Shown: piece by piece, positions 4,202 through 23,986 of the stretch
Position numbering within the stretch: the stretch's first letter is position 1
Layout of the letters: each line of letters begins with the position of its first letter
Virus record (IMG/VR): IMGVR_UViG_3300029319_008466
Coordinates: 1-64,000 of that record
Direction: 5' to 3' (one strand)
DNA: 64,000 nt
From: a virus
Notes under the pieces: model-generated
What the model was told of the DNA's origin: nothing
What the model saw: only the letters and a program-made list of their open reading frames with translations
Databases searched by the model: none
Translations under genes and position numbers: made by a program

Positions 4202-5479
4202 ATGAGTGATACCTCAAGTGAAAAAAAGAAAATATTTGTATTAGCGGACCATCCGTTTACTCCATCTGGTGTTGGAACCCAGACCAGATATGTTATAGAA
4301 GCCCTATTGAGAACAGGGAGGTATAAGTTCGTATGTTTTGGCGGGGCAGTGAAACATCACGACTATAAACCCCAGAGAACTGAAGAGTGGGGTGATGATT
4401 TAATTATACACCCTGTTGATGGGTATGGAAATCAAGATATGGTTCGTTCTGTAATTAGGCATGAAAGACCCGATCTTTTATGGTTTATGACCGATCCGCG
4501 TTTTTGGGGGTGGCTCTGGACTATAGATAATGAAGTTCGCGCCCATATGCCAATGTTATACTATCATGTATGGGATAATAAACCATATCCTTATTTTAAT
4601 AAATATGCTTATTCTTCAAATGACTTTATTGCCACAATTTCAAAACTAACAGATGATATTGTTAAAACTGTTGCACCAGACGTTGAGTCGCTTTATTTAC
4701 CACATGCAGTTAACGCAGAAATATTTAAAAAATTACCAGCTAACGAAGTGCAGACTTTTAGAAAAAACACTTTTCCCTCTGAAGGTGATAATAAAAAATT
4801 TATATTTTTCTGGAACAATCGTAACGCCAGACGCAAGCAGAGTGGAACTTTAATTTTCTGGTATAAAGAATTTTTAGATAAAATCGGTCATGATAAGTCC
4901 ACTCTCATCATGCATACCGATCCAAAAGATCCGCATGGTCAAGAATTAAATCACATTATAGAGAGCCTGGGATTAACTGACGGTCAAGTGCTATTTTCGA
5001 CTCAAAAGATGGACCCCGCAGGTCTTTGTATGATGTATAATATGGCAGACTGTACTATTAATATTTCAGATGCTGAAGGTTTTGGTCTGGCCACACTAGA
5101 ATCTTTGTCATGTGGCACTCCGATTATTGTCAATATGACAGGGGGGCTACAAGAGCAAGTAACGGATGGAAAGGACTGGTTTGGTTTTGGATTAGAGCCA
5201 GCCTCCAAAGCCATTATTGGGTCTCAAGAGGTGCCGTATATTTATGAAGATAGATTAAATAAAGATCAGTTTGTAGACGCCTTGGTCAAAATGTATAATA
5301 TGAGCCAAGAAGAGCGAGATGAGCTTGGTAGAAAGGGGAGAGCCCATGTGGAAAAAAACTATAATTTTGATAATTTTTGTAGCACCTGGGTTGATGTAGT
5401 TGATACAGTAATAGAAAAACACGGCTCTTGGGAAAATAGAAAAATTTATAAACCATGGACATTTAGGGAGATTAAATAA
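4202..5479 (+). CDS. Glycosyltransferase, GT4 (GT-B) family
   Basis: SGVG N-terminal loop, NRNARRK, and AEGFGLATLES (E-x7-E). Confidence 0.9.
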   Translation: MSDTSSEKKKIFVLADHPFTPSGVGTQTRYVIEALLRTGRYKFVCFGGAVKHHDYKPQRTEEWGDDLIIHPVDGYGNQDMVRSVIRHERPDLLWFMTDPRFWGWLWTIDNEVRAHMPMLYYHVWDNKPYPYFNKYAYSSNDFIATISKLTDDIVKTVAPDVESLYLPHAVNAEIFKKLPANEVQTFRKNTFPSEGDNKKFIFFWNNRNARRKQSGTLIFWYKEFLDKIGHDKSTLIMHTDPKDPHGQELNHIIESLGLTDGQVLFSTQKMDPAGLCMMYNMADCTINISDAEGFGLATLESLSCGTPIIVNMTGGLQEQVTDGKDWFGFGLEPASKAIIGSQEVPYIYEDRLNKDQFVDALVKMYNMSQEERDELGRKGRAHVEKNYNFDNFCSTWVDVVDTVIEKHGSWENRKIYKPWTFREIK

Positions 5480-6747
5480 TGAAAACAATATTAGTAAGAG
5501 GTCCGGCACTCTCTCGTTCTGGATATGGCGAGCAAACAAGATTTGCTTTGAGGGCACTAAGAACCCATGAAGATAGGTTTAATATTCTCGTGCAAAATAT
5601 TTCATGGGGTCAAACCGGCTGGATAACAGATGACACTGAAGAACGGCGCTGGATCGATAATATAATTGGCAAAACCCACCATCACCTAAATCAGCAATTG
5701 CCTATAGATATATCATTGCAAGTTACTATTCCAAATGAGTGGGAAAAGATTGCTCCTATAAATATTGGTTATACAGCAGGAATTGAGGCATCGAAAATAG
5801 CACCTGTATGGATAGAAAAATCATTTTTAATGGATAGGATTATAACAATTTCCAACCATTCAAAAAAAGTATTTGAATCAACAGTGTACGAGGCATTAAA
5901 CGAACAAACACAAGAAAAATTTCTATTTAAAACTGAAACGCCAATACATGTTGTACACTACCCAGTTAAGGATTTAACTGTTGAAAAGCTCGACATAGAA
6001 CTGGATTATGATTTCAACTTTTTAACAGTGGCTCAAATGGGTCCACGAAAAAATTTAGCCAACACGATTAAGTGGTTTATAGAAGAGTTTAAAGATGAAG
6101 AAGTGGGACTTGTGGTTAAAACAAATATTGCCAATTGTAGTACTTTTGATCAACATAGAACTGCTAATGACATTAGCCGACTAATAAATCAGGTTCCCGA
6201 ACGTAAGTGCAAAGTATATTTGTTACATGGAGATCTAACATTACAACAAATGAATTCTTTATACACAAATCCAAAAATTAAATGTTATGTAACACACACA
6301 CATGGAGAAGGATTTGGAATTCCTATATTTGAAGCAGCTTATTTTGGAGTCCCTGTGATAGCCCCTCAGTGGAGTGGGCAAAATGATTTCTTACATGCTC
6401 CAATTAAAGTAGGAAAGCAAAAGAAGGCAAAACTGCGACCATTGTTCTGTAGAACAGAATACACAATATCACAAATTCCACAAGAGGCTGTTTGGGATGG
6501 TGTTTTACAGGCAGATGCAATGTGGTGCATTCCGTCTGAAAAGGGAGCAAAAAACTCTTATAGAGAAATGTATAAAAATTATAAAAAATATGCTGCCATG
6601 GCTAAAAAACTAAAAAAATATATATTGCAAAACTTTACTGAACAAGAACAGCATGAAGAGTTTGTCAACTTTGTTCTGGGGGAAGAAGAACTAGAGTTAG
6701 AAAACTGGCTTTCTGAATTTTCAGAAGAATTGCAAGTTCATGAGTAA
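5479..6747 (+). CDS. Glycosyltransferase, GT4 (GT-B) family
   Basis: SGYG, RKN, and GEGFGIPIFEA (E-x7-E). TAATG overlap with the previous gene. Confidence 0.9.
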   Translation: MKTILVRGPALSRSGYGEQTRFALRALRTHEDRFNILVQNISWGQTGWITDDTEERRWIDNIIGKTHHHLNQQLPIDISLQVTIPNEWEKIAPINIGYTAGIEASKIAPVWIEKSFLMDRIITISNHSKKVFESTVYEALNEQTQEKFLFKTETPIHVVHYPVKDLTVEKLDIELDYDFNFLTVAQMGPRKNLANTIKWFIEEFKDEEVGLVVKTNIANCSTFDQHRTANDISRLINQVPERKCKVYLLHGDLTLQQMNSLYTNPKIKCYVTHTHGEGFGIPIFEAAYFGVPVIAPQWSGQNDFLHAPIKVGKQKKAKLRPLFCRTEYTISQIPQEAVWDGVLQADAMWCIPSEKGAKNSYREMYKNYKKYAAMAKKLKKYILQNFTEQEQHEEFVNFVLGEEELELENWLSEFSEELQVHE

Positions 6748-7582
6748 AATAATAATTATAGCTGATTTTTTTGTTAACGAAATCATGGGCGGTGGCGAAA
6801 TAAACAATGATGAATTAATAAAAATATTGAGAAAGAAAAAATACGAGGTTGATGAAATTAAAAGCATCAACGTAACACCGAGGTATTTAAAAGAATTGCC
6901 TCTTGATACCAAGATTATCGTTTCTAATTTTATTCAACTATCGAAAGAAAGTAAACAAATAATACAAAATGAAAAATCATATTTAATTTATGAACACGAC
7001 CACAAATATGTCAAAACAAGAAATCCGGCAGATTATAAAAACTTCCTCGCACCCAAAGAGCATATAATAAACTACAATTTTTATAAAAATGCAAAATCTG
7101 TATTATGCCAAAGCACTTTTCACTCAGATATTGTTAAATCAAATTTACATTTTGATAATATTCTAAGCTTAAGTGGGAATCTTTGGTCGCCATCTTCTTT
7201 AGAGTTGATGGAAAAAATTTGTAAGATAGATAAAGGGCAAAAATATTCAATTATTAATTCTAATACATGGCACAAAAATACAAAAGGAACAGTGTATTTG
7301 TGCGAAACAAAAAAATGGGAGTATGATTTGATAAATCCTGGTTCATATAGCAAGTTTCTGTCCGATTTAGGAAAAAATGATAAGTTTATATTTTTACCAA
7401 AAACTCCCGAAACTTTGTCACGAATTGTTGTAGAAGCTAGAATGATGGGTATGTCTGTGATCACCAATAATTTAGTTGGCGCAACAAAAGAAGCTTGGTT
7501 TTCTCAAAAAGGGCCAGAACTAATTGAAACTGTTCTCAAGATGAGAAAATCCATACCAGAAAAAGTATTACAATCTTTTTAA
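6740..7582 (+). CDS. Glycosyltransferase-like (GT-B)
   Basis: GGGE N-terminal motif and PETLSRIVVEARMMG (E-x7-E-like). Confidence 0.7.
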   Translation: MSKIIIIADFFVNEIMGGGEINNDELIKILRKKKYEVDEIKSINVTPRYLKELPLDTKIIVSNFIQLSKESKQIIQNEKSYLIYEHDHKYVKTRNPADYKNFLAPKEHIINYNFYKNAKSVLCQSTFHSDIVKSNLHFDNILSLSGNLWSPSSLELMEKICKIDKGQKYSIINSNTWHKNTKGTVYLCETKKWEYDLINPGSYSKFLSDLGKNDKFIFLPKTPETLSRIVVEARMMGMSVITNNLVGATKEAWFSQKGPELIETVLKMRKSIPEKVLQSF

Positions 7583-7588
7583 AGTATT

Positions 7589-8320
7589 ATGAAAATTACA
7601 ATTATCATCCCTTGCTATAATGCAGAAGCCTGGATAGCCGAAAGCATTAAGTCTGCTCTCTTACAAACATATGAAAATACTGAAGTGATTTTTGTTGATA
7701 ATGAAAGTACAGATAATAGTCACGCAATTGCTTTAGAAATTCAAAAATTAAATCCAAAACTAAAAGTTTTTACAGCACCAAATTTATATAAATATTCTTG
7801 GGAAGAGCCTGTGGATAAAGCCCTGTCCGAAGCTACTGGTGAATATTTTACTATTTTGGGAGCAGACGATTATATTGACAAAGATTATATCAAGAACATA
7901 GTAAATGTAATTTCTGTCGCTCCAAACAAAATACAAATTATACAAACACCAATAAGGGGCGTTTTAAAAAATAAAGAAAAATACTTAGAAGAGATTAAGC
8001 ACACTTATAAAAGTTTAGAGGAATTTAAAACACTTTTGTTTAAAAGGTGCCCCGTTAATACACCAACTGTAGTATATAAAAAACAACTATATGATTCGGG
8101 TATAATTCGTTGGAATTCCAAAAAATATCTTGGTGCGGCAGACTATGATTTATATTTTAACATAGCCCATCATGACATTTTTATATATCCATATCCAAAA
8201 TGGTTAGGATATTTCTACAGATGGCATGACAAACAGGCTACTTGGGGAATGCACCAAGAAAATACTAACTATGATTCAATTATCCAAGCACACTGGAATG
8301 CTGTCTGGGACTGGGAATAA
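7589..8320 (+). CDS. Glycosyltransferase, GT2 family
   Basis: IIIPCYN, VDNESTD, GADD (DXD-like), ADYD. Confidence 0.9.
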   Translation: MKITIIIPCYNAEAWIAESIKSALLQTYENTEVIFVDNESTDNSHAIALEIQKLNPKLKVFTAPNLYKYSWEEPVDKALSEATGEYFTILGADDYIDKDYIKNIVNVISVAPNKIQIIQTPIRGVLKNKEKYLEEIKHTYKSLEEFKTLLFKRCPVNTPTVVYKKQLYDSGIIRWNSKKYLGAADYDLYFNIAHHDIFIYPYPKWLGYFYRWHDKQATWGMHQENTNYDSIIQAHWNAVWDWE

Positions 8321-8331
8321 AAGAGGTTAAT

Positions 8332-10125
8332 ATGGGTACTATTAGAGTAGCAGATTATATTTTTGATAGAATATCTGAGCTTGGTGCTAAACACATCTTT
8401 ATGTTGACAGGCGGCGGTGCAATGTTTTTAAACGATGCTGTCGCAAAGAATAAAAATTTATCTGCCATATGTGTTCATCACGAACAGGCCGCAGCCATGG
8501 GTGCTGTAGGTTACTCAAAATATGAAAACGATTATGGCGTAGTTTGTACGACTACTGGGTGTGGCTCTACAAACACAATAACCGGCTTATTGGAGGCGTG
8601 GCAGGATAATGTAAAGTGCATATTTATTTCGGGACAAGTAAACAAAGATCAGACTTCATATATGTCTGAAACACCCCTGCGTCAATTTGGTGTACAAGAA
8701 GCGGATATTGTAGAAATTGTAAAATCAATAACAAAATATGCAGTAATGATTACTGATCCTGAAATGGTTGCATATCATCTTGATAAAGCATTTCACCTAT
8801 GTTCTACTGGGCGTCCTGGTCCGGTTTGGATTGATGTGCCGTTGGACGTACAAGGTGCTTATGTTGATCCTCAAAAGCTCAAAAGATACATGCCTGCTGT
8901 AGAAAATAGCAAAGTTGATCTAAAAGATTTTTATACCTTGCTGGAAAATTCTAAAAGACCGATATTATTAGCTGGAAATGGTATAAAACTATCAGGCGCT
9001 ACCAGTGAATTTTTACAATTTGTTAAAAAACACAACATACCTGTTGTTTCAACCTATCTTGGAATAGATCTTTTATCACATCAAGACCCATTGATGATTG
9101 GGTGTGTGGGGGTAAAAGGAACAAGAGCGGGAAATTTTGCATTACAAAACTCCGATTTAGTAATAGCGATTGGTACCAGACTAAGTGTGCCAGTAATTGG
9201 ATATAAATATCATTTTTTTGCAAGAGAGGCTAAAATTGTAGTTGTAGATATTGATCCTGCCGAACATCAAAAAAAGACAATTAATATTAATACATTTATA
9301 CACGCTGATGCTAAAGACTTTTTTAATGCCTGTACGTTGGAAAATATAACAAAGCCTGTGCAGTCGCAAAAATGGGCTGATACTTGCTATAGTTGGAAAA
9401 ACAATTGGACAGTGTATCAAAAAGAGTATGAAAAAGACGACACAGGAATTAACCTATATTACTTTATTGAAAAACTGTCAGATTGTATGCATAGTGATTC
9501 CGTTGTAGTCTCTGATGCGGGATCAGCATATTACGTGACATCGCAAGGATTAAAAATAAAAGACAAACAAAAATATGTGACCTCTGGAGCCCAAGCCGAC
9601 ATGGGATTCACCATTCCAGCATCCGTGGGCGTTAGTTTTGCCAATAATAAAAAAGATGTTATTGGTATTACTGGAGACGGATCATTTCAGACTAACATAC
9701 AAGAATTGCAGACTATAGTGCATTATAATTTACCAATTAAATTATTTATATGGAACAATGATGGATATCTTTCAATTCAAAATACACAAAATAAATTTTT
9801 TGATGGAAGGCTTATAGGAGTCGATAAAGACTCGGGTGTATCGTTTCCCAAAATTGAAAAAATTGCAAAAGCCTATGGTATAAAATATTTTAAAGTAGAA
9901 AAAGCAAAAAATATTTCAAAAACAATATCAGAAGTGTTACAATGTACAGAACCAGTGATATGCGAAGTAATGTGTCAAAAACAACAACAAATACTTCCTA
10001 CATTGGCAAGCATGAAAACTGACGATGGTAAAATAATTTCTAAGCCTTTGGAAGACATGTATCCGTACATGGATAGAGAAGAGTTTTATGATAATATGAT
10101 TGTTAGTCCATTAGAAGAAAAATAA
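8332..10125 (+). CDS. ThDP-dependent acetolactate-synthase-like carboligase (YerE-like)
   Basis: HHEQAA, GRPGPVWIDVP and GDGSF...NN ThDP motif. It lies among NDP-sugar genes with no ilvC, ilvD or ilvH. Confidence 0.85.
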   Translation: MGTIRVADYIFDRISELGAKHIFMLTGGGAMFLNDAVAKNKNLSAICVHHEQAAAMGAVGYSKYENDYGVVCTTTGCGSTNTITGLLEAWQDNVKCIFISGQVNKDQTSYMSETPLRQFGVQEADIVEIVKSITKYAVMITDPEMVAYHLDKAFHLCSTGRPGPVWIDVPLDVQGAYVDPQKLKRYMPAVENSKVDLKDFYTLLENSKRPILLAGNGIKLSGATSEFLQFVKKHNIPVVSTYLGIDLLSHQDPLMIGCVGVKGTRAGNFALQNSDLVIAIGTRLSVPVIGYKYHFFAREAKIVVVDIDPAEHQKKTININTFIHADAKDFFNACTLENITKPVQSQKWADTCYSWKNNWTVYQKEYEKDDTGINLYYFIEKLSDCMHSDSVVVSDAGSAYYVTSQGLKIKDKQKYVTSGAQADMGFTIPASVGVSFANNKKDVIGITGDGSFQTNIQELQTIVHYNLPIKLFIWNNDGYLSIQNTQNKFFDGRLIGVDKDSGVSFPKIEKIAKAYGIKYFKVEKAKNISKTISEVLQCTEPVICEVMCQKQQQILPTLASMKTDDGKIISKPLEDMYPYMDREEFYDNMIVSPLEEK

Positions 10126-10135
10126 GGAGCTTACA

Positions 10136-11068
10136 ATGGCCGCAGATGACAGAAACAAAGTAACAATACTTAAACTACGAAGACAAAAAAAATTAGGAAA
10201 CAAGACAGTGCTTGTTACTGCTTATGATTATCCACAAGCAAGAATTGCTGATGGTGCAGACGTAGATTGCATTTTGGTTGGAGATTCATTGGGAATGACA
10301 ACCTTGGGATATAAAACAACTATTCCAGTAACCATGGATGATATGATAAGACACTCAGAAGCTGTTGCAAGAGGGGCAAAAAAGGCGTTTCTTATAGGAG
10401 ACATGCCATATATGTCTTATCAGGTATCGAACGAAGAGGCAGTGCATAATGCCGGTAGATTTGTTCGGGCGGGCATGGACTGCGTTAAAGTTGAGGGCGC
10501 AATGACAGAGAGAATTAGAGCAATTGCTGACTCTGGTATCATGGTGATGAGTCATTTGGGGCTAACTCCACATACTAGAGCCAAACTCGGCGGTTATCGC
10601 GTGCAGGGTAAAACAGCAAAGCAAGCCGAGATTATTTTAAAACAAGCACTCGACCTACAAGAAGCTGGCTGCACTTTTTTACTTTTAGAAGGTATGCCAA
10701 GAGAATCAGCAGAAATGATTGCTAACGAATTATCCATTCCAGTATATGGAATTGGAGCCGGTGATAAGGTGGACGGTCAATTGGTAATATTCCACGACCT
10801 TATGGGGTTGTTTTGGGAATTTAAATCCAAATTTGTTAAGCGATATTGCGAAGCGGGACAAATAATGCAAAATGCTCTTAGCAATTATACAGAAGAAGTT
10901 CGAAACGGACTGTTTCCTTCTGAAGAAAACTTTTATGCAATAAAAGAAGAAGAACTTGAAAGACTGCTGGGAGGAGGAAACTGGAAACATGATATAATTT
11001 ATGAAAACGATCAAGGTTTTCCAACGAATCATTCCGCCACTCCTAATACTGTTTTAAAAAAAAAGTAA
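10136..11068 (+). CDS. panB: Ketopantoate hydroxymethyltransferase-like protein
   Basis: TAYD, LVGDSLGM, GDMPYMSY, VKVEG, HLGLTP, GGYRVQG, GIGAG..DGQLV.HD, plus an extra C-terminal tail. Confidence 0.92.
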   Translation: MAADDRNKVTILKLRRQKKLGNKTVLVTAYDYPQARIADGADVDCILVGDSLGMTTLGYKTTIPVTMDDMIRHSEAVARGAKKAFLIGDMPYMSYQVSNEEAVHNAGRFVRAGMDCVKVEGAMTERIRAIADSGIMVMSHLGLTPHTRAKLGGYRVQGKTAKQAEIILKQALDLQEAGCTFLLLEGMPRESAEMIANELSIPVYGIGAGDKVDGQLVIFHDLMGLFWEFKSKFVKRYCEAGQIMQNALSNYTEEVRNGLFPSEENFYAIKEEELERLLGGGNWKHDIIYENDQGFPTNHSATPNTVLKKK

Positions 11069-11104
11069 AATCTTCAAAGTCCAATAGTGATGTGGAATAT
11101 TGGA
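11059..11104 (+). promoter_or_regulatory. Candidate -1 frameshift signal: A_AAA_AAG plus downstream hairpin
   Basis: In-frame heptamer at 11059-11065 within an A9 run. Inverted repeat TCCAATA (11080-11086) / TATTGGA (11098-11104). The -1 frame stays open to TGA 11137-11139. Confidence 0.4.
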
Positions 11105-11123
11105 AAGATATGTTTAAAAATCC

Positions 11124-11984
11124 ATGGACAATACAGTGAACAATATATTGATTACTGGAGGAAATGGCTTTTTAGCAAAAGAATTGACACTATATTTTTC
11201 CAATAATAGTGAGATAAATTTAATTTCTACAAACCGCAGCACTCTTGATATTGCAAACGCACAACAGGTTAATGACTTCTTTAATTTGAACAACATCGAT
11301 ATTGTGATACATACCGCAGTAAAAGGCGGCAAAAGAAATCAACAAGAGAGCATAGATGATTTTTTTTCTAATATATCCATGTTTAATAATTTGTTAAACT
11401 GTTCAAACAAATATAAGATGTTGTTTAATTTTGGTTCGGGCGCTGAGTTTGATAGATTTTTTAATATATCTCTTGCCAAAGAAGAATCGATTTTTAATCA
11501 CCGCCCAATTGACTATTATGGATTATCCAAAAATTTTATTAGTAGAAAAATTTCTGAACTAGATTCAAGATATTTTAATTTAAGGTTGTTTGGTTGTTTT
11601 GGTCATTTTGAAGAGCCTCAAAGACTCATAAGAGCTTCTTTTGATAATATACAAAATGGTAAACCAATTGCGATTAATCAAGATAAATTTATGGACTATT
11701 TTTATGCACAAGATGTTGGAAAAGTAATAGAACATATTATACAAAGCAATAAAGATGTCATACCTAGAGATATTAATTTATGTTACGAGAAAAAATATAA
11801 ACTAACAGATATATCAAACATGATTCTTGACTTGACTGGAAATGAAGAATCGGTTATAATAAAAAAAGAAACTCTTGGTAAACCATATACTGGTTGCGGC
11901 AAAAAACTTAAGGGGCTAAACATTGATTTACTTGGGATACATAAGGGTATTGAGATATGTCTGAAAAATTGGAAAAAATCCTAG
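11124..11984 (+). CDS. NAD-dependent epimerase/reductase (extended SDR, possibly YerF-like)
   Basis: ITGGNGFLA, FGSGAEF, YGLSK. Alternative GTG start at 11136. Confidence 0.85.
   Translation: MDNTVNNILITGGNGFLAKELTLYFSNNSEINLISTNRSTLDIANAQQVNDFFNLNNIDIVIHTAVKGGKRNQQESIDDFFSNISMFNNLLNCSNKYKMLFNFGSGAEFDRFFNISLAKEESIFNHRPIDYYGLSKNFISRKISELDSRYFNLRLFGCFGHFEEPQRLIRASFDNIQNGKPIAINQDKFMDYFYAQDVGKVIEHIIQSNKDVIPRDINLCYEKKYKLTDISNMILDLTGNEESVIIKKETLGKPYTGCGKKLKGLNIDLLGIHKGIEICLKNWKKS
11832..11860 (+). promoter_or_regulatory. Sigma70-type promoter inside a CDS, upstream of the rfbH-like gene
   Basis: TTGACT (11832-11837), 17-nt spacer, TATAAT (11855-11860), about 100 nt before ATG 11957. Confidence 0.6.
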
Positions 11985-13306
11985 ATTTAGTCAGCGAATA
12001 CATTGTAGATAAAAAGAAAAACGATAAATGGGACGCGGGCATTGATTGGCTATCTTATTCTGGTCCACATTATGATGAAAACGAGTATGTAGCCGCCGTC
12101 AAGAGTCTTTTAGATGAATGGCTTGTATTTGGTAAAGATTGCAGAGATTTTGAGATTGAGTTTCCAAAATTACTGGGGCTTCAAAGAGGTGTATTAACTA
12201 ACTCTGGTAGTTCGGCAAATCTATTGATGGTAAGTGCCCTCTCTTCGCCCACACCGGCTCTTAGAAAATACCACCTACCAAGAGGCAGTAAGTTTATAAC
12301 GCCGGTTGTATGCTTTCCTACAACGTTAAATCCTCTTTTGCAAAACGGATACGAGCCAGTTTTTGTCGATGTTACATTACCAGACTTAAATTTAGACTTA
12401 GATCAGGTAGAAAAACAACTTGAACAAGATCCCGATATCAGAGGTATAATTTTTGCACATGTGCTTGGAAACCCTCCTGACATGGATCGCTTAATGTCCT
12501 TGGTAGAAAAATATAATTTAATATTTTTGGAAGATTGCTGTGATGCCCTGGGTTCAACATACAAGGGTAAAAAACTTGGTTCTTTTGGGGTGATGTCTAC
12601 ATGCTCTTTTTACCCAGCGCATCATATGACAATGGCTGAAGGCGGTTTTATAGCAACAAACAGCTATGCTCTTTATAAAACACTGGCTAGTCTTCGAGAT
12701 TGGGGGCGCGGCTGTTATTGCAATGAAAAAAAGCCAGGCGATGTAACAACGGGTACCGCATGTGGAGACAGGTTTAAAAATTGGCTATGTGGCCGTAGTG
12801 ACGTTATTTATGATCATAGGTATGTTTATAATGAAGTGGGGTATAACCTCAAACCCATAGAGTTGCAAGGTGCTCTCGGCAAACAACAAATTAAAAAATT
12901 GCCAGAAATGGAAAATGCACGAAGACTTAATTTTCAAAAACTATATAATATCTTTAAGCCATATGAAAAATATTTCTGGTTAAATTCTGCAACTCCAGGT
13001 TCAGATCCTTGTTGGTTTGGATTTTTGTTTACCGTTAAACCAGACGCCCCTTTTAACAGGGAGCAATTTGTTAATTTTTTAGAAACTAACAAAATTCAGA
13101 CAAGACCATATTTTGCAGGCAACGTTTTATATCACCCGGCATACAAAAACTTGAGACAAGATGAAAATAACATAAGGGAAAAATATCCAATAGCAGATAT
13201 AGTAACTTTGGGCTCTGCATTTTTAGGTACATATATCGGATACACAGACGAGAAGATGAACTATATTAAGAAAAATGTAGATAAGTTTTTTCAGGAGTTA
13301 AAATGA
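11957..13306 (+). CDS. rfbH: NDP-4-keto-6-deoxyhexose 3-dehydrase (RfbH/DdhC/AscC, E1-type)
   Basis: NSGSSANL and EDCCDALGS. SFYPAHHMT has His in place of the Schiff-base Lys. RDWGRGCYC...C are the Fe-S cysteines. Confidence 0.88.
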   Translation: MSEKLEKILDLVSEYIVDKKKNDKWDAGIDWLSYSGPHYDENEYVAAVKSLLDEWLVFGKDCRDFEIEFPKLLGLQRGVLTNSGSSANLLMVSALSSPTPALRKYHLPRGSKFITPVVCFPTTLNPLLQNGYEPVFVDVTLPDLNLDLDQVEKQLEQDPDIRGIIFAHVLGNPPDMDRLMSLVEKYNLIFLEDCCDALGSTYKGKKLGSFGVMSTCSFYPAHHMTMAEGGFIATNSYALYKTLASLRDWGRGCYCNEKKPGDVTTGTACGDRFKNWLCGRSDVIYDHRYVYNEVGYNLKPIELQGALGKQQIKKLPEMENARRLNFQKLYNIFKPYEKYFWLNSATPGSDPCWFGFLFTVKPDAPFNREQFVNFLETNKIQTRPYFAGNVLYHPAYKNLRQDENNIREKYPIADIVTLGSAFLGTYIGYTDEKMNYIKKNVDKFFQELK

Positions 13307-14253
13307 AAATTGTTTATATTACAGGCTGTCTTGGTTTTATAGGCTCCTATGTTACGAGAAAGTGTCTTCAAAAAGGCTGGATGGTCTATGGCGTAGATAA
13401 ATGCACATACGTTGCAAACACAGACTTGCTGCAAGAATTTAACCAATATCAAAATTTTACTTTTGAAAAAAAAGACATTAAAAAGCTTGCACATTTGTAT
13501 GATTGTGATTATATTATTAATATAGCCGCCGAGTCTCATGTTGGAAATAGCATTGTACAAAGCGATTCATTTATTGACAGCAATATTGTTGGGGTTAAAA
13601 ACCTATTGGACCTTTTAAGACACAAACCAAATAATGTTTCTAAAAGACCAATATTTCTACACTTCAGTACAGACGAAGTATATGGCGATATTGAAACCGG
13701 AGTACACACAGAAACGGATTTATTACAACCAAGCAATCCTTATTCGGCAGCCAAGGCAGCGGCGGATATGTTGGTAATGGCGTGGTCAAGAACATATAAT
13801 ATTGAGTATATTATTTTGCGACCAACAAATAACTATGGAATTGGACAATATCCTGAAAAACTTATACCGCTATCGGTAAAAAATCTTAATAGAAATAGAA
13901 AAATTAGACTTCATAATATGGGAACACCCATACGAAATTGGCTACATGCCGATGATACAGCCGAAGCAGTGATGACTATTATTGAATCGGGCGTAACAAA
14001 TCAAATATACAATATAGCTGGTGGGTTTGAACAAACAAATATAGAAACCGTTAAAAAGATTATTCACAGCTATTATTCGCCAGAATGTAATTGGGAACAA
14101 TATGTGGATTTGTCATATCATCGAGAAGGACAAGATGTTAGATATGCCCTTGATGATATTAAATTACGTGATTTGGGATGGCAGCCAAAAAAACAATTTG
14201 ACGAAGAACTTGATAATATAGTTGCGCATTACAAAAATAATTTTAAATGGTAA
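13303..14253 (+). CDS. rmlB: dTDP-glucose 4,6-dehydratase-like
   Basis: GCLGFIG, AAESHV, STDEVYGD, NPYSAAK, NNYG..QYPEKLIP. Confidence 0.85.
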   Translation: MKIVYITGCLGFIGSYVTRKCLQKGWMVYGVDKCTYVANTDLLQEFNQYQNFTFEKKDIKKLAHLYDCDYIINIAAESHVGNSIVQSDSFIDSNIVGVKNLLDLLRHKPNNVSKRPIFLHFSTDEVYGDIETGVHTETDLLQPSNPYSAAKAAADMLVMAWSRTYNIEYIILRPTNNYGIGQYPEKLIPLSVKNLNRNRKIRLHNMGTPIRNWLHADDTAEAVMTIIESGVTNQIYNIAGGFEQTNIETVKKIIHSYYSPECNWEQYVDLSYHREGQDVRYALDDIKLRDLGWQPKKQFDEELDNIVAHYKNNFKW

Positions 14254-14260
14254 TAGAAAA

Positions 14261-15196
14261 ATGAGGTTAAAATACAGTGACATTATTGGAAAGCATAAAA
14301 ACATACCATGTGCAATCACACTTCACGGTCCAAGTTTAGATCCTTACAGAGATCGAATACAAGACTTACAAAGGCAAAATAAATTAATAAGATTTGACGT
14401 TAATGAATGGTATGATTATTTTGAAGAGAAACCCAACTATTGGGTTGTATCAAATACAGAATTTACAATTGATGCCTCAATAAGAAGAAATCGTATATGG
14501 GCTGAGAGAAAATACGAGCACAATGTGTTCAACAAATATAATGTACCTCTTTTATATAATGCAACAGCAGACTTGACAGATTTAGACTTTGTTGACAAGA
14601 ATTTACAATGCGATTACTTGCCTTATGACACCAAGCATTTTAAGGGACATAGGTGTGTTGAGATCTTAAAAAATTTTAAAACATATTATGAGCAAAATAG
14701 AAATTTAAATTTTAAATATTATGGAAACAACGAACAATTGTGGCAGCCGCCTAATATAAAGGGATTTGCACCATGGAAGCAAAAATTACACGGACGCATC
14801 GGCGGTGCCTGGAATGTATCGGGAAAGTGTTGCGCATTTATTGATCAGAGCACGTTGCAGGAAGAATTACAAAAACATTCTGGATATGAACAACATATGG
14901 GGCCGGGGCAGACTGTTGGGTTGTTTGCGGGCATGTTTGCAATATTAATGGGATGTAATCCGATATATATTGTCGGTCTTGATTTAGACTGTGAAGCAGG
15001 CTTTGCCGCAGGCAAGCAAACACTTGGTGTTTACAACGAGGGGCATGTTGGGCATTGGAAGGTAATTTATAGAGATTTTCTTCTTGATGACATGCGTATA
15101 TTAAAAGAAAGTGCAGAAAAACTTGGCATTGAGATTATCAATTTAAATAAACAATCTTGGCATGATGTATTTCAAAAAGGCGAATTAAATTTATAA
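14261..15196 (+). CDS. Maf/DUF115-like putative ulosonic-acid glycosyltransferase
   Basis: KHKNIPCAITLHGPSL and MGCNPIYIVGLD match the GPSL / G.D motifs of the Maf (MAF_flag10) family. It lies just upstream of neuB-neuA. Confidence 0.65.
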   Translation: MRLKYSDIIGKHKNIPCAITLHGPSLDPYRDRIQDLQRQNKLIRFDVNEWYDYFEEKPNYWVVSNTEFTIDASIRRNRIWAERKYEHNVFNKYNVPLLYNATADLTDLDFVDKNLQCDYLPYDTKHFKGHRCVEILKNFKTYYEQNRNLNFKYYGNNEQLWQPPNIKGFAPWKQKLHGRIGGAWNVSGKCCAFIDQSTLQEELQKHSGYEQHMGPGQTVGLFAGMFAILMGCNPIYIVGLDLDCEAGFAAGKQTLGVYNEGHVGHWKVIYRDFLLDDMRILKESAEKLGIEIINLNKQSWHDVFQKGELNL

Positions 15197-15202
15197 TAAT
15201 TA

Positions 15203-15211
15203 TGTTATAAT
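15203..15211 (+). promoter_or_regulatory. Extended -10 promoter (TGnTATAAT) for tRNA-Asn/neuB
   Basis: TG-T-TATAAT 11 nt upstream of the tRNA 5' end, with a second TATAAT at 15192-15197. Confidence 0.5.
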
Positions 15212-15222
15212 AAAAACACTAC

Positions 15223-15299
15223 TGGGGTGAGGTTGTCCAGGTATCAACGCCTGACTGTTAATCAGGAGACTGCTGGTTCGAGTCCAGCCACCCCAGCCA
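15223..15299 (+). tRNA. tRNA-Asn(GTT), atypical A8/U14
   Basis: Acceptor stem TGGGGTG/CACCCCA, D stem GTTG/CAAC, anticodon arm CCTGA-CT-GTT-AA-TCAGG, T arm GCTGG-TTCGAGT-CCAGC, discriminator G, CCA. Confidence 0.9.
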
Positions 15300-15328
15300 A
15301 AATCACTAACAATATAAAAGGAAAAAAA

Positions 15329-16159
15329 ATGAAAAAAACTTTTGTTATCGCAGAAATCGGAATTAATCACAATGGTGATTTAAATTTGGCAAAAAAACTA
15401 ATTGATGGAGCCGTTACAGCGGGCTGTGACATGGTGAAGTTTCAAAAAAGAACAGTTGATTTGGTATATACTAAACAAGAACTTGATAAGACAAGAGAAA
15501 GTCCCTGGGGAACAACCAATCGTGAACAAAAAATGGGATTAGAGTTTGGTGAAAAAGAATATGATCAAATTGACAGATATTGTAAGAAAAAAGGAATTTA
15601 TTGGACTGCATCTGCATGGGATGTGCCAAGCCAATTATTTTTAAGAAAATATGATTTAAAATACAACAAAGTTGCATCTCCGATGCTAACACATGATGAT
15701 TTGTTACAAACGATTGCGGAAGAAAAAAAGTATACTTTTATTTCAACAGGTATGAGTACGGTTGAGCAAATCAGAAAAGCTGTTAACATTTTTAAGAAAG
15801 CAGGTTGCCCTTTTGAGCTAATGCACTGTAATAGTACCTATCCCCTTAATCCAGAAGATGCAAATTTGCGTGTAATAAACACATTGCGTAGTGATTTTGG
15901 TTGTGATGTGGGGTATAGCGGACACGAAGTAGGTGTTATCGTTAGTTGTGCAGCGGTCGCCCTGGGTGCAACTTCCATAGAAAGACACATTACTTTAGAT
16001 CGAGCTATGTATGGCTCGGATCAATCTGCTTCGTTAGAACTGGGAGGGTTAAATAAATTGGTGGCATATATTAGAGATATTGAAACATCTTTGGGATCCC
16101 CCGTAAAAAAATTGCATGCCTCGGAGGTACCTGCTATGAAAAAGCTTAGGAAATATTAA
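15329..16159 (+). CDS. neuB: N-acetylneuraminate/nonulosonate synthase family, short form without the C-terminal SAF domain
   Basis: IAEIGINHNGD, KFQKR, STGMS, HCNSTYP, GYSGHE, IERHITLDR. True start is ATG 15329, after the tRNA. Confidence 0.92.
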   Translation: MKKTFVIAEIGINHNGDLNLAKKLIDGAVTAGCDMVKFQKRTVDLVYTKQELDKTRESPWGTTNREQKMGLEFGEKEYDQIDRYCKKKGIYWTASAWDVPSQLFLRKYDLKYNKVASPMLTHDDLLQTIAEEKKYTFISTGMSTVEQIRKAVNIFKKAGCPFELMHCNSTYPLNPEDANLRVINTLRSDFGCDVGYSGHEVGVIVSCAAVALGATSIERHITLDRAMYGSDQSASLELGGLNKLVAYIRDIETSLGSPVKKLHASEVPAMKKLRKY

Positions 16160-16878
16160 TGACACTGACCGCACTAATACCGGCACGAGGTGGTAGCAAG
16201 GGCGTACCAAGAAAAAATATTCATAATTTGGCTGGATATCCCCTTATTGCATATTCTATAATCGCGTGTAAGGCTTCTTCAAAAATAAGTAGAGTGGTAG
16301 TATCGACTGATGACGAAGAGATAGCTGATGTAGCAAGACAGTATGGCGCAGAAGTTCCGTTTATGAGACCTAAAGAATTTGCGGGCGATAAGTCAACTGA
16401 CTTAGAGGTTATTAAGCATTTCTATTCCATGGAAGGACCACAAGATTTAGCTTTTGTTAGACCAACAACTCCGATTAGGGAACCTGTTGTCATGGATGGT
16501 ATTGTTGATAAATTCATTAAAAATTATTCAAACATTACTGGACTAAGATCCGCACATGAGCTTTCAGAATCGCCTTATAAGTTTTTTAAAATTGTAGATG
16601 GAATATTCACTGGGTTTTTTGATCATTTTGATGGAATAAAAGATTATACAAATTTACCCAGACAAATGTTTCCAAAAGCGTATCATCCAAACGGATATCT
16701 TGATATTTTAAAAAAAGATACAGTTTTAGCAGGTAGTGATTTTGGTAGCAAAATTTTACCCGCAATTACTGAATTTACAGTTGAAGTTGATGATAAATAT
16801 CATTTTGAATTACTGGAAAGCCAAATTGCAATGGGCAAAGACAAAGTATATCAGGAGCTAAAAAATGGTGTATACTAA
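16159..16878 (+). CDS. neuA: Acylneuraminate (ulosonate) cytidylyltransferase
   Basis: IPARGGSKGVPRKN, VSTD, PFMRP, RPTTP, RQ.FP..Y..NG. Confidence 0.92.
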   Translation: MTLTALIPARGGSKGVPRKNIHNLAGYPLIAYSIIACKASSKISRVVVSTDDEEIADVARQYGAEVPFMRPKEFAGDKSTDLEVIKHFYSMEGPQDLAFVRPTTPIREPVVMDGIVDKFIKNYSNITGLRSAHELSESPYKFFKIVDGIFTGFFDHFDGIKDYTNLPRQMFPKAYHPNGYLDILKKDTVLAGSDFGSKILPAITEFTVEVDDKYHFELLESQIAMGKDKVYQELKNGVY

Positions 16879-18133
16879 GAACCGCTTTATAAAAGAAGAT
16901 TTTGAACTAAACTATGGTGACTTAACAGAAATTAGGCATAAGTATGAGCCATTGGCCCTCGGAGATCAGGTGCCGGTTGTGTGGCACAAAGCAAAAGATT
17001 TCAATGTTTATGATGAGAGTGGGAACAAGTGGATCGATATGACTGCTGGGATTTTTGCAGCCAACGCTGGACACTCGAACGAAGAAATAAAGAAAGCTAT
17101 AAAAAAACAATTGGATGACGATTTGCTTTTTGCATATCAATATGAGACACGTATAAGGTCGAAATTTGTTACCAAGTTTATTGATACAACTCCAGATTAT
17201 CTTAACAAGGTCGTGTTGTTAAATACAGGCTCTGAAGCAACAGATGCTTGCTATAAAATAATTAAACTTTGGGCAAAGAAAAATAATAAAAAATATATTG
17301 TTTGCTTTAATGGAAGTTATCACGGTAGAGTTCTGGGCTCGGCGCTGATGTGTGGTAGTAAGGACGCTACACAATGGTCGAATGTTGTAGACGATGATAT
17401 TGTGTTCATAGATTTTCCTTATGATGAAGATTCGCGCTTTGATCCATCGCTTCTACCACCCAGAGAACAAATAGCTGCTTTTTTCTTAGAAACGTATCAG
17501 GGGTGGGGAGCTTGCATGTATCCCCCTCAATATATAAAGGATTTATATACTTTTGCTAGAGAAAGCGGTGCTTTAGTCTGTTTTGATGAGGTTCAAGCAG
17601 GATTTTATAGAATGGGCAAGCTTTTTGGATTTATGACTTATGGTGATTTTATTGAACCAGATATGATTACTCTTGGTAAGGGTATCTCCTCTTCTCTTCC
17701 AATGTCTGCGGTGTTGGGCAGGGCGGAAATCATAGATGTAGACTTAGATGCTAATTTAAGCGGCACACATGCTGGAAATGCCCTTGGTTCTGCTGCATGT
17801 TTGGCTAATTTAGAGGTGTTAACTAGTAAAAAGTTTCAAACAGAACTTGAGAAAAAGATAGTCTATTTTGAAAAGAGGTGCGAAGAACTCTTAAGACTTA
17901 ATTCTGTAGTAAAAGTTAACTATCGAGGAATGGTCGCTGGCATAATCTTAGATAATACAAAAGTTGCGAATGATGCAGTCAATAGATGCATTCTAAATGG
18001 AGTGCTTCCTGTTTGCACATTTAGAGAGTCCATAAAGCTCGGGCCTCCTTTGACTATCAGCATTGAAGCAATAGGAGAAGCGTTTGATGTTATCGAAAAT
18101 GCAATAATTGAGGCATCAAATGTCAAAAAATAA
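16865..18133 (+). CDS. Class III PLP aminotransferase
   Basis: NTGSEA, SYHGR, FDEVQAGFYRMG, PDMITLGKG (PLP Lys). Confidence 0.9.
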   Translation: MVYTKNRFIKEDFELNYGDLTEIRHKYEPLALGDQVPVVWHKAKDFNVYDESGNKWIDMTAGIFAANAGHSNEEIKKAIKKQLDDDLLFAYQYETRIRSKFVTKFIDTTPDYLNKVVLLNTGSEATDACYKIIKLWAKKNNKKYIVCFNGSYHGRVLGSALMCGSKDATQWSNVVDDDIVFIDFPYDEDSRFDPSLLPPREQIAAFFLETYQGWGACMYPPQYIKDLYTFARESGALVCFDEVQAGFYRMGKLFGFMTYGDFIEPDMITLGKGISSSLPMSAVLGRAEIIDVDLDANLSGTHAGNALGSAACLANLEVLTSKKFQTELEKKIVYFEKRCEELLRLNSVVKVNYRGMVAGIILDNTKVANDAVNRCILNGVLPVCTFRESIKLGPPLTISIEAIGEAFDVIENAIIEASNVKK

Positions 18134-20010: not shown

Positions 20011-20802
20011 ATGCACTATAATTTTACAGCTTTTGATGAATTTGAGATATTTTCTTCCAAGAGCAATATAGAGCAATATAGAGAGTTTAAGCTCAACGAA
20101 GTTCAGAAAAATGTTTCTTTTATAAAAAGGCATTTTAAAAACAAAATAGATGTTTTAGAGATTGGCTCTGGAAATTCAAAGTTCTTATATGCTTTGGAGC
20201 AACACAATCTTTTGAATTTTGGATATGGCGTAGATGTCAGCAAGAGCAGAGTGGACTTTGCTGACGAATGGAAGAGGGATTTAAGATTAAATAATATACA
20301 CAACATGCACAAAAATATATTAGATTCAGATATGAGTGAGTTCCCACAAGTTGATTTAATATATTGTGTCGATATGGCCTTTCAACTTTTCGATCCAGCG
20401 TCTCAAGGCAGTGATATAAAATTTTTAAATAGTTGCTATAAAAAACTAAAGAAGGGGGGTAAAATAATATTAGAACTGGACAACAATAGTAAAATATTAA
20501 AAAGCCTTGAAAACAACGAGGCCAAGTTATGGCAGGAGTTTGACAGCTCAGATCCCTGGAGGTATCTGTTGTGGGATTGCAACTATGAACCAAAAAGATC
20601 GTATTTACATATCAAAAAAACTTTTATAAAAAGAGATCTATCTGAAATTTCTAGAAATAACATATGTTTAAGAGTTTATACACACAACGACATAATTAAT
20701 ATACTAGACAAACTTTCTTTTAAAAAAATGCAAATATATAACCACTGGGATAAGAAAGGCGACATGTCTGATGATGAATTTATAATTATAGGAGAAAAAT
20801 AA
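20011..20802 (+). CDS. Class I SAM-dependent methyltransferase
   Basis: VLEIGSGNS, GVDVS, LKKGG. Confidence 0.75.
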   Translation: MHYNFTAFDEFEIFSSKSNIEQYREFKLNEVQKNVSFIKRHFKNKIDVLEIGSGNSKFLYALEQHNLLNFGYGVDVSKSRVDFADEWKRDLRLNNIHNMHKNILDSDMSEFPQVDLIYCVDMAFQLFDPASQGSDIKFLNSCYKKLKKGGKIILELDNNSKILKSLENNEAKLWQEFDSSDPWRYLLWDCNYEPKRSYLHIKKTFIKRDLSEISRNNICLRVYTHNDIINILDKLSFKKMQIYNHWDKKGDMSDDEFIIIGEK

Positions 20803-22412
20803 TGGCAAAACAAGATAAGGTTCGTAAAACACCACAAATTAAGCCACCAGTTTTTTCGGCAAATGTGGATTTCAAACCAAAAAAAAATAAAGGATATCAA
20901 AACAGGGTACTTTTATTAAATCCTCCGACCGATAGAACTCAATTTGTGGGATCTGACAATTATTTCCCTCTTGGGCTCATAATGCTTGCAACAGTTCTTC
21001 GAGGAAATGATGATGTAGCAGAAATTATGGATATTAATAATGATTTCTTTCATCGTGATTTGGATGATGATCTTTTTATACAATATATGAATGAGGTTGT
21101 ACTACCATATGTTGAAGAATTCAAGCCCGATATGGTTGGCATTGGCGGCACTTTTTCTGGAGCATTTAAATATACGAAAATTATTGCAAGAATGGTGAAA
21201 AATAAGTTTCCAACCATCCCCACTATCGTAGGTGGAAATCATGCTAGCACATTTAAGGGAATGGTACTGGAAAGGTTTAGGTATATAGATTATGTTATGA
21301 TTGGGGAGGGAGAATATACTTTTCCTGAATTTTTACACTCAGTTATACACAAAAACAACGAAGGGCTTGAGCTTGTTGATGGCATATGTTATAGAAAAGG
21401 CGGACACAGAGCGGTGCCCTATGATGTATCACTTCAGGACGACCACACACCGGCAGCCGAAATTATTACACAACAAAAGAAATTTTATATTAATAATTTA
21501 GATGAATTGCCAAAACCGGATTTTGACATTGTTGGTGTTGATAAATATTATATGGATACATCAGATTGGTATAATCCTCACAATATAGAAGTTGGACAAC
21601 CATTTCCCATTATATCCAGTAGAAGTTGTCCCATGAGATGCACATTTTGTAATATGTGGCACGTCCATGGTCCAAAAATAAGATATAGAAGCGCAGAAGA
21701 TGTTGTTGACGAAATAGAATATTTATATCACACACACAATGCAAGATATTTCCAATTTATGGATGATAACTTTACATTTGATAAAAAACGTGTTATTAAA
21801 ATGATGACCGAGATTAAAAGAAGAGGATTGAAAATCTCATATGATACTCCGAACGGTATTGCAATTAATCGACTGGACGAGGATGTTATTCGAGCAATGG
21901 TAGAAGGTGGTTTGATTAGAATAAGCATTGCAATTGAGAGCGGTTCACAAAAAATAAGAGAGATTATGATGAAAGGCCTCAAACAAGACAAGATTTATGA
22001 AGCGGCGAATGAATTGGCAAAGTATCCACACGTATTTGTAAAAGCATTTTTTATTGTTGGAATGCCCGAGGAAACAGAAGAGACCTTAGAAGAAACAAGA
22101 AGTATGATTAAAACTCTTCCAATAGATAAATTCTCTATCAATTACGCTACGCCATTTCCTGGTACTGCATTGTTTAATCAATGTAAAGCAAAGGGAATGT
22201 TGCGCTATGAAGTAGAAGACTATGTTGAGATTGATGGTCATCAATTAAGATCAGATAGACCTCATTTTAAGCCATACGAATTAACCGAACAGCAATTGAT
22301 GGATTTTATTGAGTGGGGTGATGAGTATATTAAAACACTCCCAGATAAGACCGGAAAATATGACCCACGAGGTGCTGGCGACATTGCCTCCTATGGTAGT
22401 GTATTTAACTGA
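20802..22412 (+). CDS. Cobalamin-binding radical SAM enzyme (class B methylase-like)
   Basis: PLGL and GGNHAS/GEGE in the B12 domain, SRSCPMRCTFC (CX3CX2C), IESGS, TPFPGT. Confidence 0.9.
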   Translation: MAKQDKVRKTPQIKPPVFSANVDFKPKKNKGYQNRVLLLNPPTDRTQFVGSDNYFPLGLIMLATVLRGNDDVAEIMDINNDFFHRDLDDDLFIQYMNEVVLPYVEEFKPDMVGIGGTFSGAFKYTKIIARMVKNKFPTIPTIVGGNHASTFKGMVLERFRYIDYVMIGEGEYTFPEFLHSVIHKNNEGLELVDGICYRKGGHRAVPYDVSLQDDHTPAAEIITQQKKFYINNLDELPKPDFDIVGVDKYYMDTSDWYNPHNIEVGQPFPIISSRSCPMRCTFCNMWHVHGPKIRYRSAEDVVDEIEYLYHTHNARYFQFMDDNFTFDKKRVIKMMTEIKRRGLKISYDTPNGIAINRLDEDVIRAMVEGGLIRISIAIESGSQKIREIMMKGLKQDKIYEAANELAKYPHVFVKAFFIVGMPEETEETLEETRSMIKTLPIDKFSINYATPFPGTALFNQCKAKGMLRYEVEDYVEIDGHQLRSDRPHFKPYELTEQQLMDFIEWGDEYIKTLPDKTGKYDPRGAGDIASYGSVFN

Positions 22413-23085: not shown

Positions 23086-23986
23086 GGTTAATTTATTTGA
23101 CAGCCTGGGTCCAGACAATTATTATGAGTATTGGCAAAGCCACAATTTTTCTAGTGAATTCGAGCCCAAGAAAGTTCAATGGGTTTATGAAAGCCGTGGT
23201 AAGGGGTATGAAAAATATGATGGTGTCACAGTTTTTACAGACAAAGATATACTGTCTCCGTGGGTTGATCGGGTTGATACAAAATATAAAATAGCATGGC
23301 TCGTAGAGTGCAAAGCGATTCATCCTTTTTCATATAAACAAGTTGTACAATTTGAAGATAAGTTTGATTATATTTTTACCTTCGACGAAGAGTTGTTAAA
23401 AAGGGGTGACAAGTATATTAAAAACCTTATAGGGACTTCCCGAGTTTCAAATGAAGATGCGGGTGTACACCCTAAAACAAAGCTTCTGTCACTAATCGCA
23501 TCAAAAAAACAATGGACAAAAGGGCACAAACTTAGACATATTGTAGCGGAATCTATCAAGGATAAATATCCTGTGGACCTCTGGGGCACTGCGTATAAGC
23601 CATTTGGACTAAACAATCAGGGTCTTTCCGCCGCTGCAATCCGAGAGGGTAAAAGCGAGCCATTAAGAGATTATAATTTTAGCATTACAATAATGAACTC
23701 GAAAGAAAATAATTATTTTACCGAAACTTTAGTCGATGTTTTCAGACATGGAACAATACCGATTTTTTGGGGTTGTGAAAACATTGGAGAATACTTTAAT
23801 GAAAAGGGAATTTTAAAATTTAATAGTGCCTCTGAATTAATAACGATACTTGACAACTTAACTCCAGAGTTGTATAATGAAAAAATAGAATACGTTAAAG
23901 AAAATTATGAATTAGCAAAAAAGTATGTTTCTATGGACGATACTTTTGCAACCAATTTAATTGAAAGGGTATTGAAAAATGAGTAG
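23072..23986 (+). CDS. GT10 (fucosyltransferase)-like glycosyltransferase
   Basis: FSITIMNS..NYFTETL.D.F..GTIPIFWG is a variant of the ENS...YxTEK...G.IPIYWG motif. Confidence 0.7.
   Translation: MKKVKVNLFDSLGPDNYYEYWQSHNFSSEFEPKKVQWVYESRGKGYEKYDGVTVFTDKDILSPWVDRVDTKYKIAWLVECKAIHPFSYKQVVQFEDKFDYIFTFDEELLKRGDKYIKNLIGTSRVSNEDAGVHPKTKLLSLIASKKQWTKGHKLRHIVAESIKDKYPVDLWGTAYKPFGLNNQGLSAAAIREGKSEPLRDYNFSITIMNSKENNYFTETLVDVFRHGTIPIFWGCENIGEYFNEKGILKFNSASELITILDNLTPELYNEKIEYVKENYELAKKYVSMDDTFATNLIERVLKNE

Follow-up and report, generated by a model that had tools for sequence, protein, structure and literature searches.

We examined the gene for PanB, a member of the 3-methyl-2-oxobutanoate hydroxymethyltransferase family, at 10136..11068 of the IMG/VR virus record IMGVR_UViG_3300029319_008466; the stretch analysed here (the window) comprises positions 1 to 64,000 of that record. 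Most likely, the PanB of this uncultured marine phage is not a vitamin gene but provides the precursor for the side chain of a branched deoxysugar that has not been described so far. PanB lies in a run of five genes at 8332-14253, and these five genes probably direct the synthesis of an acyl-branched 3,6-dideoxyhexose along the lines of the 'unifying scheme' (Steitz et al. 2022, PMC9306805), with PanB as the supplier of the donor.

In particular, we identified a YerE/JanthE-like thiamine diphosphate (ThDP) carboligase of FAD fold (597 aa, 8332..10125; Pfam TPP_enzyme_N, M and C), PanB (310 aa; TIGR00222, PF02548), an extended short-chain dehydrogenase/reductase (SDR) of RmlD/Epimerase fold (286 aa, 11124..11984; Pfam Epimerase and RmlD_sub_bind), an RfbH/E1-type, pyridoxamine phosphate-dependent nucleoside diphosphate (NDP)-4-keto-6-deoxyhexose 3-dehydrase (449 aa, 11957..13306; NF011936) and an RmlB-like NDP-hexose 4,6-dehydratase (316 aa, 13303..14253; PF16363, TIGR01181), in this order. 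These genes, like all genes of the window, are on the + strand, and they are tightly packed or overlapping, with intergenic distances of 10, 55, -28 and -4 nt. The profile matches bear out the order, identities and coordinates of the genes as given in an initial annotation of the window, and its placement of PanB within a YerE/YerF/RfbH-type branched-sugar module is supported.

PanB is linked to a YerE-like ThDP gene in viruses

PanBs with 70–90% identity to that of the window occur on more than 100 viral contigs, and we examined 80 PanB-seeded viral loci. A YerE-like ThDP open reading frame (ORF) abutted PanB in all 80 of them, with a median gap of 3 nt, and three arrangements were found: ThDP upstream with 50–64% identity to the ThDP enzyme of the window (42 loci), ThDP upstream with 33–37% identity (17 loci), and ThDP downstream with 33–36% identity (21 loci). 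The rest of the island was reshuffled between loci while the PanB–ThDP adjacency persisted, and PanB was conserved far more strongly than the neighbouring genes. Homologues of the SDR (27–56% identity) came after the ThDP or the PanB gene in most viral and in many cellular loci. When the search was seeded with the ThDP enzyme, PanB was present in 59 of 79 viral loci, and several of the remaining ones stopped just beyond the ThDP gene.

The control consisted of 80 listed metagenomic PanB loci, which are largely generic PanBs. Among these, a ThDP gene adjoined PanB in three loci, two of which belong to the viral clade, and in none of the 72 ordinary PanBs; panC was found at 3 kb or less from PanB in 28 of the loci listed, all of them among those same 72. 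The linkage of PanB and ThDP in viruses is thus far beyond chance (80/80 versus 3/80 control loci).

Three viral loci (L212, region 6771-8731; L219, region 6766-7593; and L221, region 5623-7607) retained the synteny of the window, with an HpcH/HpaI aldolase directly after the ThDP gene in the place of PanB. In L212 and L221, this aldolase was followed by an iron-sulfur protein of about 380 aa with Fer4 and LdpA_C-like regions; in the related locus L236 (6813-7988), such a protein came immediately after ThDP, and we found no aldolase. The Fer4 + LdpA_C-like protein is a candidate for the E3-like reductase that is missing, or else for a supplier of the aldehyde.

The absence of panC, panD, panE, ilvC and ilvD, noted initially for the window, extends to the entire record of 82,990 bases (estimated to be ~28% complete), in which panC, panE (ApbA), ilvD, ilvC (KARI) and panD gave no match. 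Five related viral records, of which two are at least 90% complete, likewise had no panC, and GenBank phages held no copy of the module. The only noteworthy panB in a GenBank phage, that of Microcystis phage MaAM05 (record 263312-273195), was considered as a phage auxiliary metabolic gene (AMG) and rejected: its neighbours at that record end are panC and sufBCDS/iscU, and the region looks like host-derived or chimeric sequence.

PanB interchanges with other 2-oxo-acid suppliers in cells

The gene adjoining ThDP was a class I/II aminotransferase in 42 of 79 cellular loci with a ThDP enzyme of the family found in the window, an HpcH/HpaI aldolase in 15 and PanB in 7, and none of them in the other 15; the three types did not co-occur beside ThDP in any of the 79 loci. 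Class I/II aminotransferases, HpcH/HpaI aldolases and PanB all yield free 2-oxo acids. On the FastTree phylogeny of the ThDP enzymes, we counted at least 8 switches in the type of supplier and at least 5 for PanB.

The seven PanB-type cellular loci came from Saccharibacteria, Acidobacteriota, Bacteroidota, Lachnospiraceae, Melainabacteria and one contig of a metagenome-assembled genome (MAG), the PanB of which nests in the viral clade. Recurrent linkage of PanB to sugar genes is present in phages as well as in cells. A second PanB was encoded elsewhere in 4 of 5 cellular genomes with a ThDP-linked PanB. In a Saccharibacteria MAG of 0.6 Mb (L098/G005), the sole PanB was the linked copy, flanked by genes for a YerE-like ThDP enzyme and an SDR, and it is apparently kept solely for glycan synthesis. 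A contig binned as a Pseudomonadota MAG (L131:11733-12623), carried SDR, ThDP and PanB genes; its PanB was 70% identical to that of the window and nested in the viral clade, and L131 is probably a phage contig binned into the MAG.

We built a PanB tree of 133 sequences, rooted at the midpoint. The viral PanBs formed one virus-specific clade, with a support of 98 in the Shimodaira–Hasegawa-like approximate likelihood ratio test (SH-aLRT), and they did not nest among the housekeeping PanBs. The midpoint root separated all seven ThDP-linked cellular PanBs, together with the viral ones, from all four second copies. The PanB tree reflected neither the type of ThDP enzyme nor whether the dehydrase of a locus was of the E1 or the ColD type. 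Among 1.8 billion representatives, the nearest PanB outside the viral clade had 57% identity, and the others 53% or less.

The viral PanB has an intact active site

The PanB of the window matched PF02548 over its full length (positions 1-259 of 259; 333.7 bits) and scored above the cut-offs of TIGR00222 (286.7 against 207.55) and NF001452 (325.5 against 272). The motifs described as intact in the initial annotation proved invariant across the viral clade: the metal and catalytic residues D50, S51, D89, K118, E120, H140 and E185 were present in 40 out of 40 viral PanBs. They correspond, in order, to D45, S46, D84, K112, E114, H136 and E181 of E. coli PanB (residue list from PMC13488298). The AlphaFold model had a predicted local distance difference test (pLDDT) score of 89.7 and matched 1OY0 in Foldseek with an E-value of 1.8e-28 and a target-normalised TM-score of 0.94; against E. 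coli 1M3U this score was 0.85, which corresponds to the TIM-barrel fold of PanB. Disorder in the model was confined to the last ~30 residues, a tail that is conserved within the viral clade. The tail residues 281-310 correspond to 10976-11068, with an A9 run directly before the stop codon, and the 55-nt gap between PanB and the SDR (region 11063-11123) is unusually long. In sum, the window encodes an intact, canonical-looking PanB, the predicted supplier of a hydroxylated 2-oxo-acid donor.

Compared with the housekeeping PanB, or ketopantoate hydroxymethyltransferase, of E. coli (1M3U) and M. tuberculosis (1OY0), to which it is 36–45% identical, the PanB of the window has the same fold, Mg2+ ligands, catalytic Glu and four pocket motifs. 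It differs from them in belonging to a virus-specific clade, in the lack of pan genes nearby, in substitutions within the pocket motifs and in the disordered C-terminal tail of ~30 aa. The four ligand-pocket motifs of 1M3U were all present in the viral PanB, with changes specific to the clade (HLGLTPHT, IPVYGIGAG, DGQLVIFHD). Mutation of I202, I212 and V214 in E. coli PanB alters the size of the nucleophile that is accepted (PMC7610986). The equivalent viral residues, I206, L216 and I218, remain large hydrophobics, so the pocket does not look enlarged; judging from these residues, the L/I pocket would suit a smaller nucleophile.

A pocket signature (M/L136, Y/F/L204, L216 and I218) was shared by 40 out of 40 viral and 6 out of 6 cellular ThDP-linked PanBs, and was found in none of the four second copies and in 6 of 83 unplaced representative PanBs. 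In the control sample, the signature was enriched beside ThDP genes, with a ThDP neighbour in 3 of 8 signature-bearing PanBs versus 0 of the 72 others.

The ThDP enzyme is a YerE-like carboligase

The ThDP enzyme of the window scored below the cut-off of every acetolactate-synthase equivalog among the NCBIfam profiles. Its best match in the PDB was JanthE (8RPH; 445 bits, full length), with 252 bits for PpYerE (5AHK) and ~248–249 bits for the best acetolactate synthase, a plant enzyme. The catalytic Glu (E51) and the GDG...NN motif (G448-D449-G450 and N475-N476) were invariant in 15 viral ThDP sequences. We conclude that the enzyme is YerE-like and not an acetolactate synthase; it is predicted to be a sugar-branching enzyme, which would add its donor to a ketosugar. 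The two distant ThDP types that adjoin other viral PanBs likewise matched JanthE or PpYerE best. Using a profile of the viral enzymes, we found cellular relatives with 44–58% identity in very diverse bacteria and archaea, and an RfbH-like 3-dehydrase gene lay within 10 kb in 56 out of 80 cellular loci of the ThDP family of the window.

The closest solved relative, JanthE of Janthinobacterium sp. HH01 (PDB 8RPH/8RPI/8RPJ), is a YerE-like enzyme that accepts ketones. Its motif is CDG, whereas the phage ThDP enzymes retain GDG (G448, D449, G450). JanthE accepts 2-oxo acids that are long or branched; no physiological substrate is known for it (PMC12188165).

Predicted genes for the acceptor sugar

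The RfbH protein scored 446.8 against NF011936 (cut-off 423) and aligned end to end with the Yersinia E1 (3BCX/3BB8; E 2e-88), including the YPAHH motif, in which His replaces the Lys that binds pyridoxal phosphate, and the CYC...C cysteines of the Fe-S cluster, both of which align with 3BCX. The RmlB-like dehydratase matched PF16363 (6e-58) and reached 293.9 bits with TIGR01181, the dTDP-glucose type, under the cut-off of 365 and far above its scores with CDP- or GDP-type dehydratase models. The SDR had only weak matches in the PDB, to RmlD, and is predicted to be a YerF/ErwF-like reductase of the branch carbonyl.

Proposed pathway

In the erwiniose route, the aldolase ErwI forms 4-hydroxy-2-oxopentanoate, ErwE adds it to CDP-3,6-dideoxy-4-ketoglucose, and the branch is then reduced by ErwF; pyruvate is no substrate for ErwE, but 4-hydroxy-2-oxobutanoate is accepted by it (PMC9306805). 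The 'unifying scheme' covers the erwiniose cluster of Pectobacterium atrosepticum (the ErwI/ErwJ aldolase-dehydrogenase, ErwE and ErwF) and the caryophyllose and gastriose clusters. The phage genes share with the erwiniose type a 2-oxo-acid former, a YerE-like carboligase and a reductase beside 3,6-dideoxy-4-ketohexose genes. The erwiniose donor is a gamma-hydroxy-2-oxo acid, and the 4-hydroxy-2-oxobutanoate accepted by ErwE is a possible product of PanB. Unlike in the erwiniose cluster, the donor maker here is PanB (PF02548, using methylene-tetrahydrofolate) and not a BphI/HpaI-type pyruvate aldolase, and the genes are carried by a phage; no BphI/HpaI-type pyruvate aldolase was found in the ORF scans of the window, and PanB occupies that position. 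PanB works as a metal-dependent class II aldolase, and the E. coli enzyme adds formaldehyde to various 2-oxo acids (PMC7610986, PMC10127515).

The yersiniose A pathway of Yersinia pseudotuberculosis (DdhA-D, YerE, YerF) also shares the E1 enzyme (RfbH/DdhC), a ThDP enzyme that branches the sugar at C4 and a branch reductase. YerE of that pathway uses pyruvate and needs no donor-forming enzyme. The ThDP enzyme of the window is closer to JanthE than to PpYerE. DdhA- and DdhD-like genes were not found in the window.

The identities of the genes, the intact catalytic residues, the conserved adjacency and the exchange of PanB for aldolases or aminotransferases are observed; the chemistry of each step and the sequence of steps, as well as the donor acid, the carrier nucleotide and the glycan target, are inferred, as follows. 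Host NDP-glucose would be converted to an NDP-3,6-dideoxy-4-ketohexose by the RmlB-like 4,6-dehydratase and RfbH/E1, which requires a reductase partner. The carrier is probably not CDP, unlike in erwiniose, because the dehydratase of the window is of the dTDP type. PanB would hydroxymethylate a free 2-oxo acid with methylene-tetrahydrofolate, and the possible products are 4-hydroxy-2-oxobutanoate (from pyruvate), its 3-methyl form (from 2-oxobutanoate) and ketopantoate (from 2-oxoisovalerate). The ThDP enzyme would then decarboxylate the PanB product and attach the resulting hydroxyacyl anion at C4 of the ketosugar, after which the SDR would reduce the branch carbonyl. Finally, the adjoining glycosyltransferases would attach the sugar to a target, possibly virion proteins. 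That PanB makes the donor acid before the ThDP enzyme transfers it is suggested by the equivalence of PanB, aldolase and aminotransferase in the same slot, by the retained 2-oxo-acid residues and by the erwiniose precedent.

We also consider, tentatively and as a possibility that we hold to be less probable than not, that the PanBs linked to glycan genes, in the phage clade as well as in related cellular lineages, now prefer pyruvate or 2-oxobutanoate over 2-oxoisovalerate as the nucleophile and make donors of the 4-hydroxy-2-oxobutanoate type, so that these abundant marine phages would modify a target, which may be their own virion, with an undescribed 3,6-dideoxyhexose of the 4-C-(1,3-dihydroxypropyl) type. 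The Saccharibacteria bacterium with the reduced genome probably does not synthesise its own 2-oxoisovalerate.

Several observations weigh against the donor-supply pathway or this shift of substrate. The deeper nodes of the PanB tree were weak (80–93 SH-aLRT). Five of the eight signature-bearing control PanBs had no ThDP neighbour, some of them in plainly non-glycan contexts; the pocket signature was thus dropped as a diagnostic of glycan-linked PanBs, and it is a marker of the clade and no proof of a changed substrate. Ketopantoate, with a quaternary carbon beside the carbonyl, may be a poor or sterically demanding donor for a ThDP enzyme. Finally, neither a PF00483 hexose nucleotidyltransferase nor an E3-like Fe-S flavoprotein was found among the scanned ORFs of the window (from a record ~28% complete), and the set of acceptor genes encoded there thus appears to be incomplete.

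Alternative explanations

The initial annotation had proposed that PanB may hydroxymethylate the keto-branched sugar or an acyl substituent after YerE. In such a mechanism, the ThDP enzyme would first add a pyruvate-derived acetyl group, and PanB would then enolise and hydroxymethylate the methyl ketone of the branch on the NDP-sugar. The same adjacency of genes is compatible with this order, the alpha-hydroxy-ketone of a YerE product could in principle chelate Mg2+, and the clade-specific pocket changes (TPQ to TPH, S139 and S231) and the conserved disordered tail of 30 aa could be read in its favour. We consider it unlikely. The residues that bind the carboxylate and the keto group of the 2-oxo acid are all retained, and the large hydrophobics at 206, 216 and 218 give no sign of room for a nucleotide sugar. 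Moreover, PanB swaps with HpcH aldolases and aminotransferases, which use free acids, its phylogeny is independent of the ThDP type and of the E1- or ColD-type sugar route, and the rejection of pyruvate by ErwE sets the aldolase-first order in the precedent (PMC9306805).

A different role for the pair, in which PanB and the ThDP enzyme make a free hydroxy acid or acyloin as an N- or O-acyl decoration (e.g. of a ulosonic acid or an amino sugar) rather than a C-branch, appears improbable. In its favour, the island contains NeuB, a CMP-transferase, aminotransferases and methyltransferases, and neither E3 nor the nucleotidyltransferase of the acceptor pathway was found among the scanned ORFs of the window; against it, no acyl-activating enzyme or acyltransferase lies alongside the PanB–ThDP pair, the NeuB module was missing from most PanB–ThDP loci while an E1 or ColD-type 3-dehydrase was present in most, and the ThDP family is tied to RfbH in cells (the 56 of 80 loci above).

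An ordinary pantothenate/coenzyme A AMG that lies by chance in a variable island is very improbable, even though the PanB equivalog cut-off is passed with all catalytic residues in place and virome studies interpret the gene in this way (PMC8940887), since the record has none of the five pathway genes and the two nearly complete relatives no panC, the ThDP adjacency is invariant over the three arrangements, an aldolase substitutes for PanB in syntenic relatives, and ordinary PanBs among the control loci listed lie by panC (28/72) and not by ThDP (0/72).

Other features of the glycan island

The record encodes PhoH, a PD-(D/E)XK nuclease and myovirus baseplate genes. The closest cultured relative by the baseplate wedge protein, Flavobacterium phage immuto, shares just 31% identity, which is too little to point to a host. 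The five-gene run lies inside a glycan island that spans ~4.2 to 32 kb (~28 kb) and contains glycosyltransferases, a Maf/NeuB/CMP-transferase module, methyltransferases, a B12-radical S-adenosylmethionine (SAM) enzyme, a second branching module and an HldE-like kinase with a nucleotidyltransferase.

Upstream of the run, we found two GT4-type glycosyltransferases (4202-5479 and 5479-6747, +), a 280-aa protein of unknown function (6740-7582, +) and a GT2 glycosyltransferase (7589-8320, +), the glycosyltransferases being assigned with Pfam. This upstream block (4202..8320) is syntenic, and the order GT1a-GT1b-o6740-GT2-ThDP was retained in many viral loci; its glycosyltransferases are candidate transferases for the branched-sugar product. 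Downstream of the run, profile matches identified a ulosonic-acid module (14222..18133, +) with Maf/MptE-like, NeuB-like, CMP-transferase-like and class-III aminotransferase genes. It occurs in some relatives only and is context, outside the PanB cassette.

The second, distinct branching module (24382-30839, +) comprises an RmlC-like epimerase, a split E1alpha/beta-like ThDP pair (210 + 178 aa), a ColD-like DegT protein, which reached 216 bits with the RfbH model and fell short of the threshold, three SDRs and a GMD-like 4,6-dehydratase; the HldE-like kinase and nucleotidyltransferase follow at 30840-31990. The B12-binding radical SAM enzyme (20802-22412, +) had a P-/C-methyltransferase type as its top NCBIfam match, and its relatives adjoin PanB in several viral loci. 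Finally, a 136-aa protein (23979-24389, +) was 77–87% identical across viral loci, a conservation equal to that of PanB, and lies immediately upstream of PanB in the loci where PanB precedes ThDP. It had no family in Pfam, NCBIfam or Atlas, and its Atlas clusters were virus-only; possibly, this protein also acts with the cassette.

Implications

A virome study counts the viral 'pantoate transferase' as a pantothenate/coenzyme A gene and ranks it first in abundance among the vitamin AMGs of an oxygen-minimum-zone virome (PMC8940887); the mislabelling that had been foreseen for this gene is thus already happening. We found no paper tying PanB to YerE-type pathways or to glycan loci. The present analysis corrects the annotation of viral 'pantoate transferase' and 'acetolactate synthase' genes that are counted as vitamin or amino-acid AMGs, and, if the shift of substrate is true, the vitamin AMG that is listed as the most abundant one in some marine viromes would be a glycan gene. 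Because an aminotransferase, an HpcH aldolase and PanB can replace one another next to ThDP, the gene in this slot provides a simple genomic rule for predicting the chemistry of the branch. If the proposed pathway is true, it would hint at the kind of natural substrate used by JanthE-type ThDP enzymes, a new branched deoxysugar would be predicted from widespread marine phages, and PanB would gain a second physiological role, as the donor supplier for C-branched sugars.

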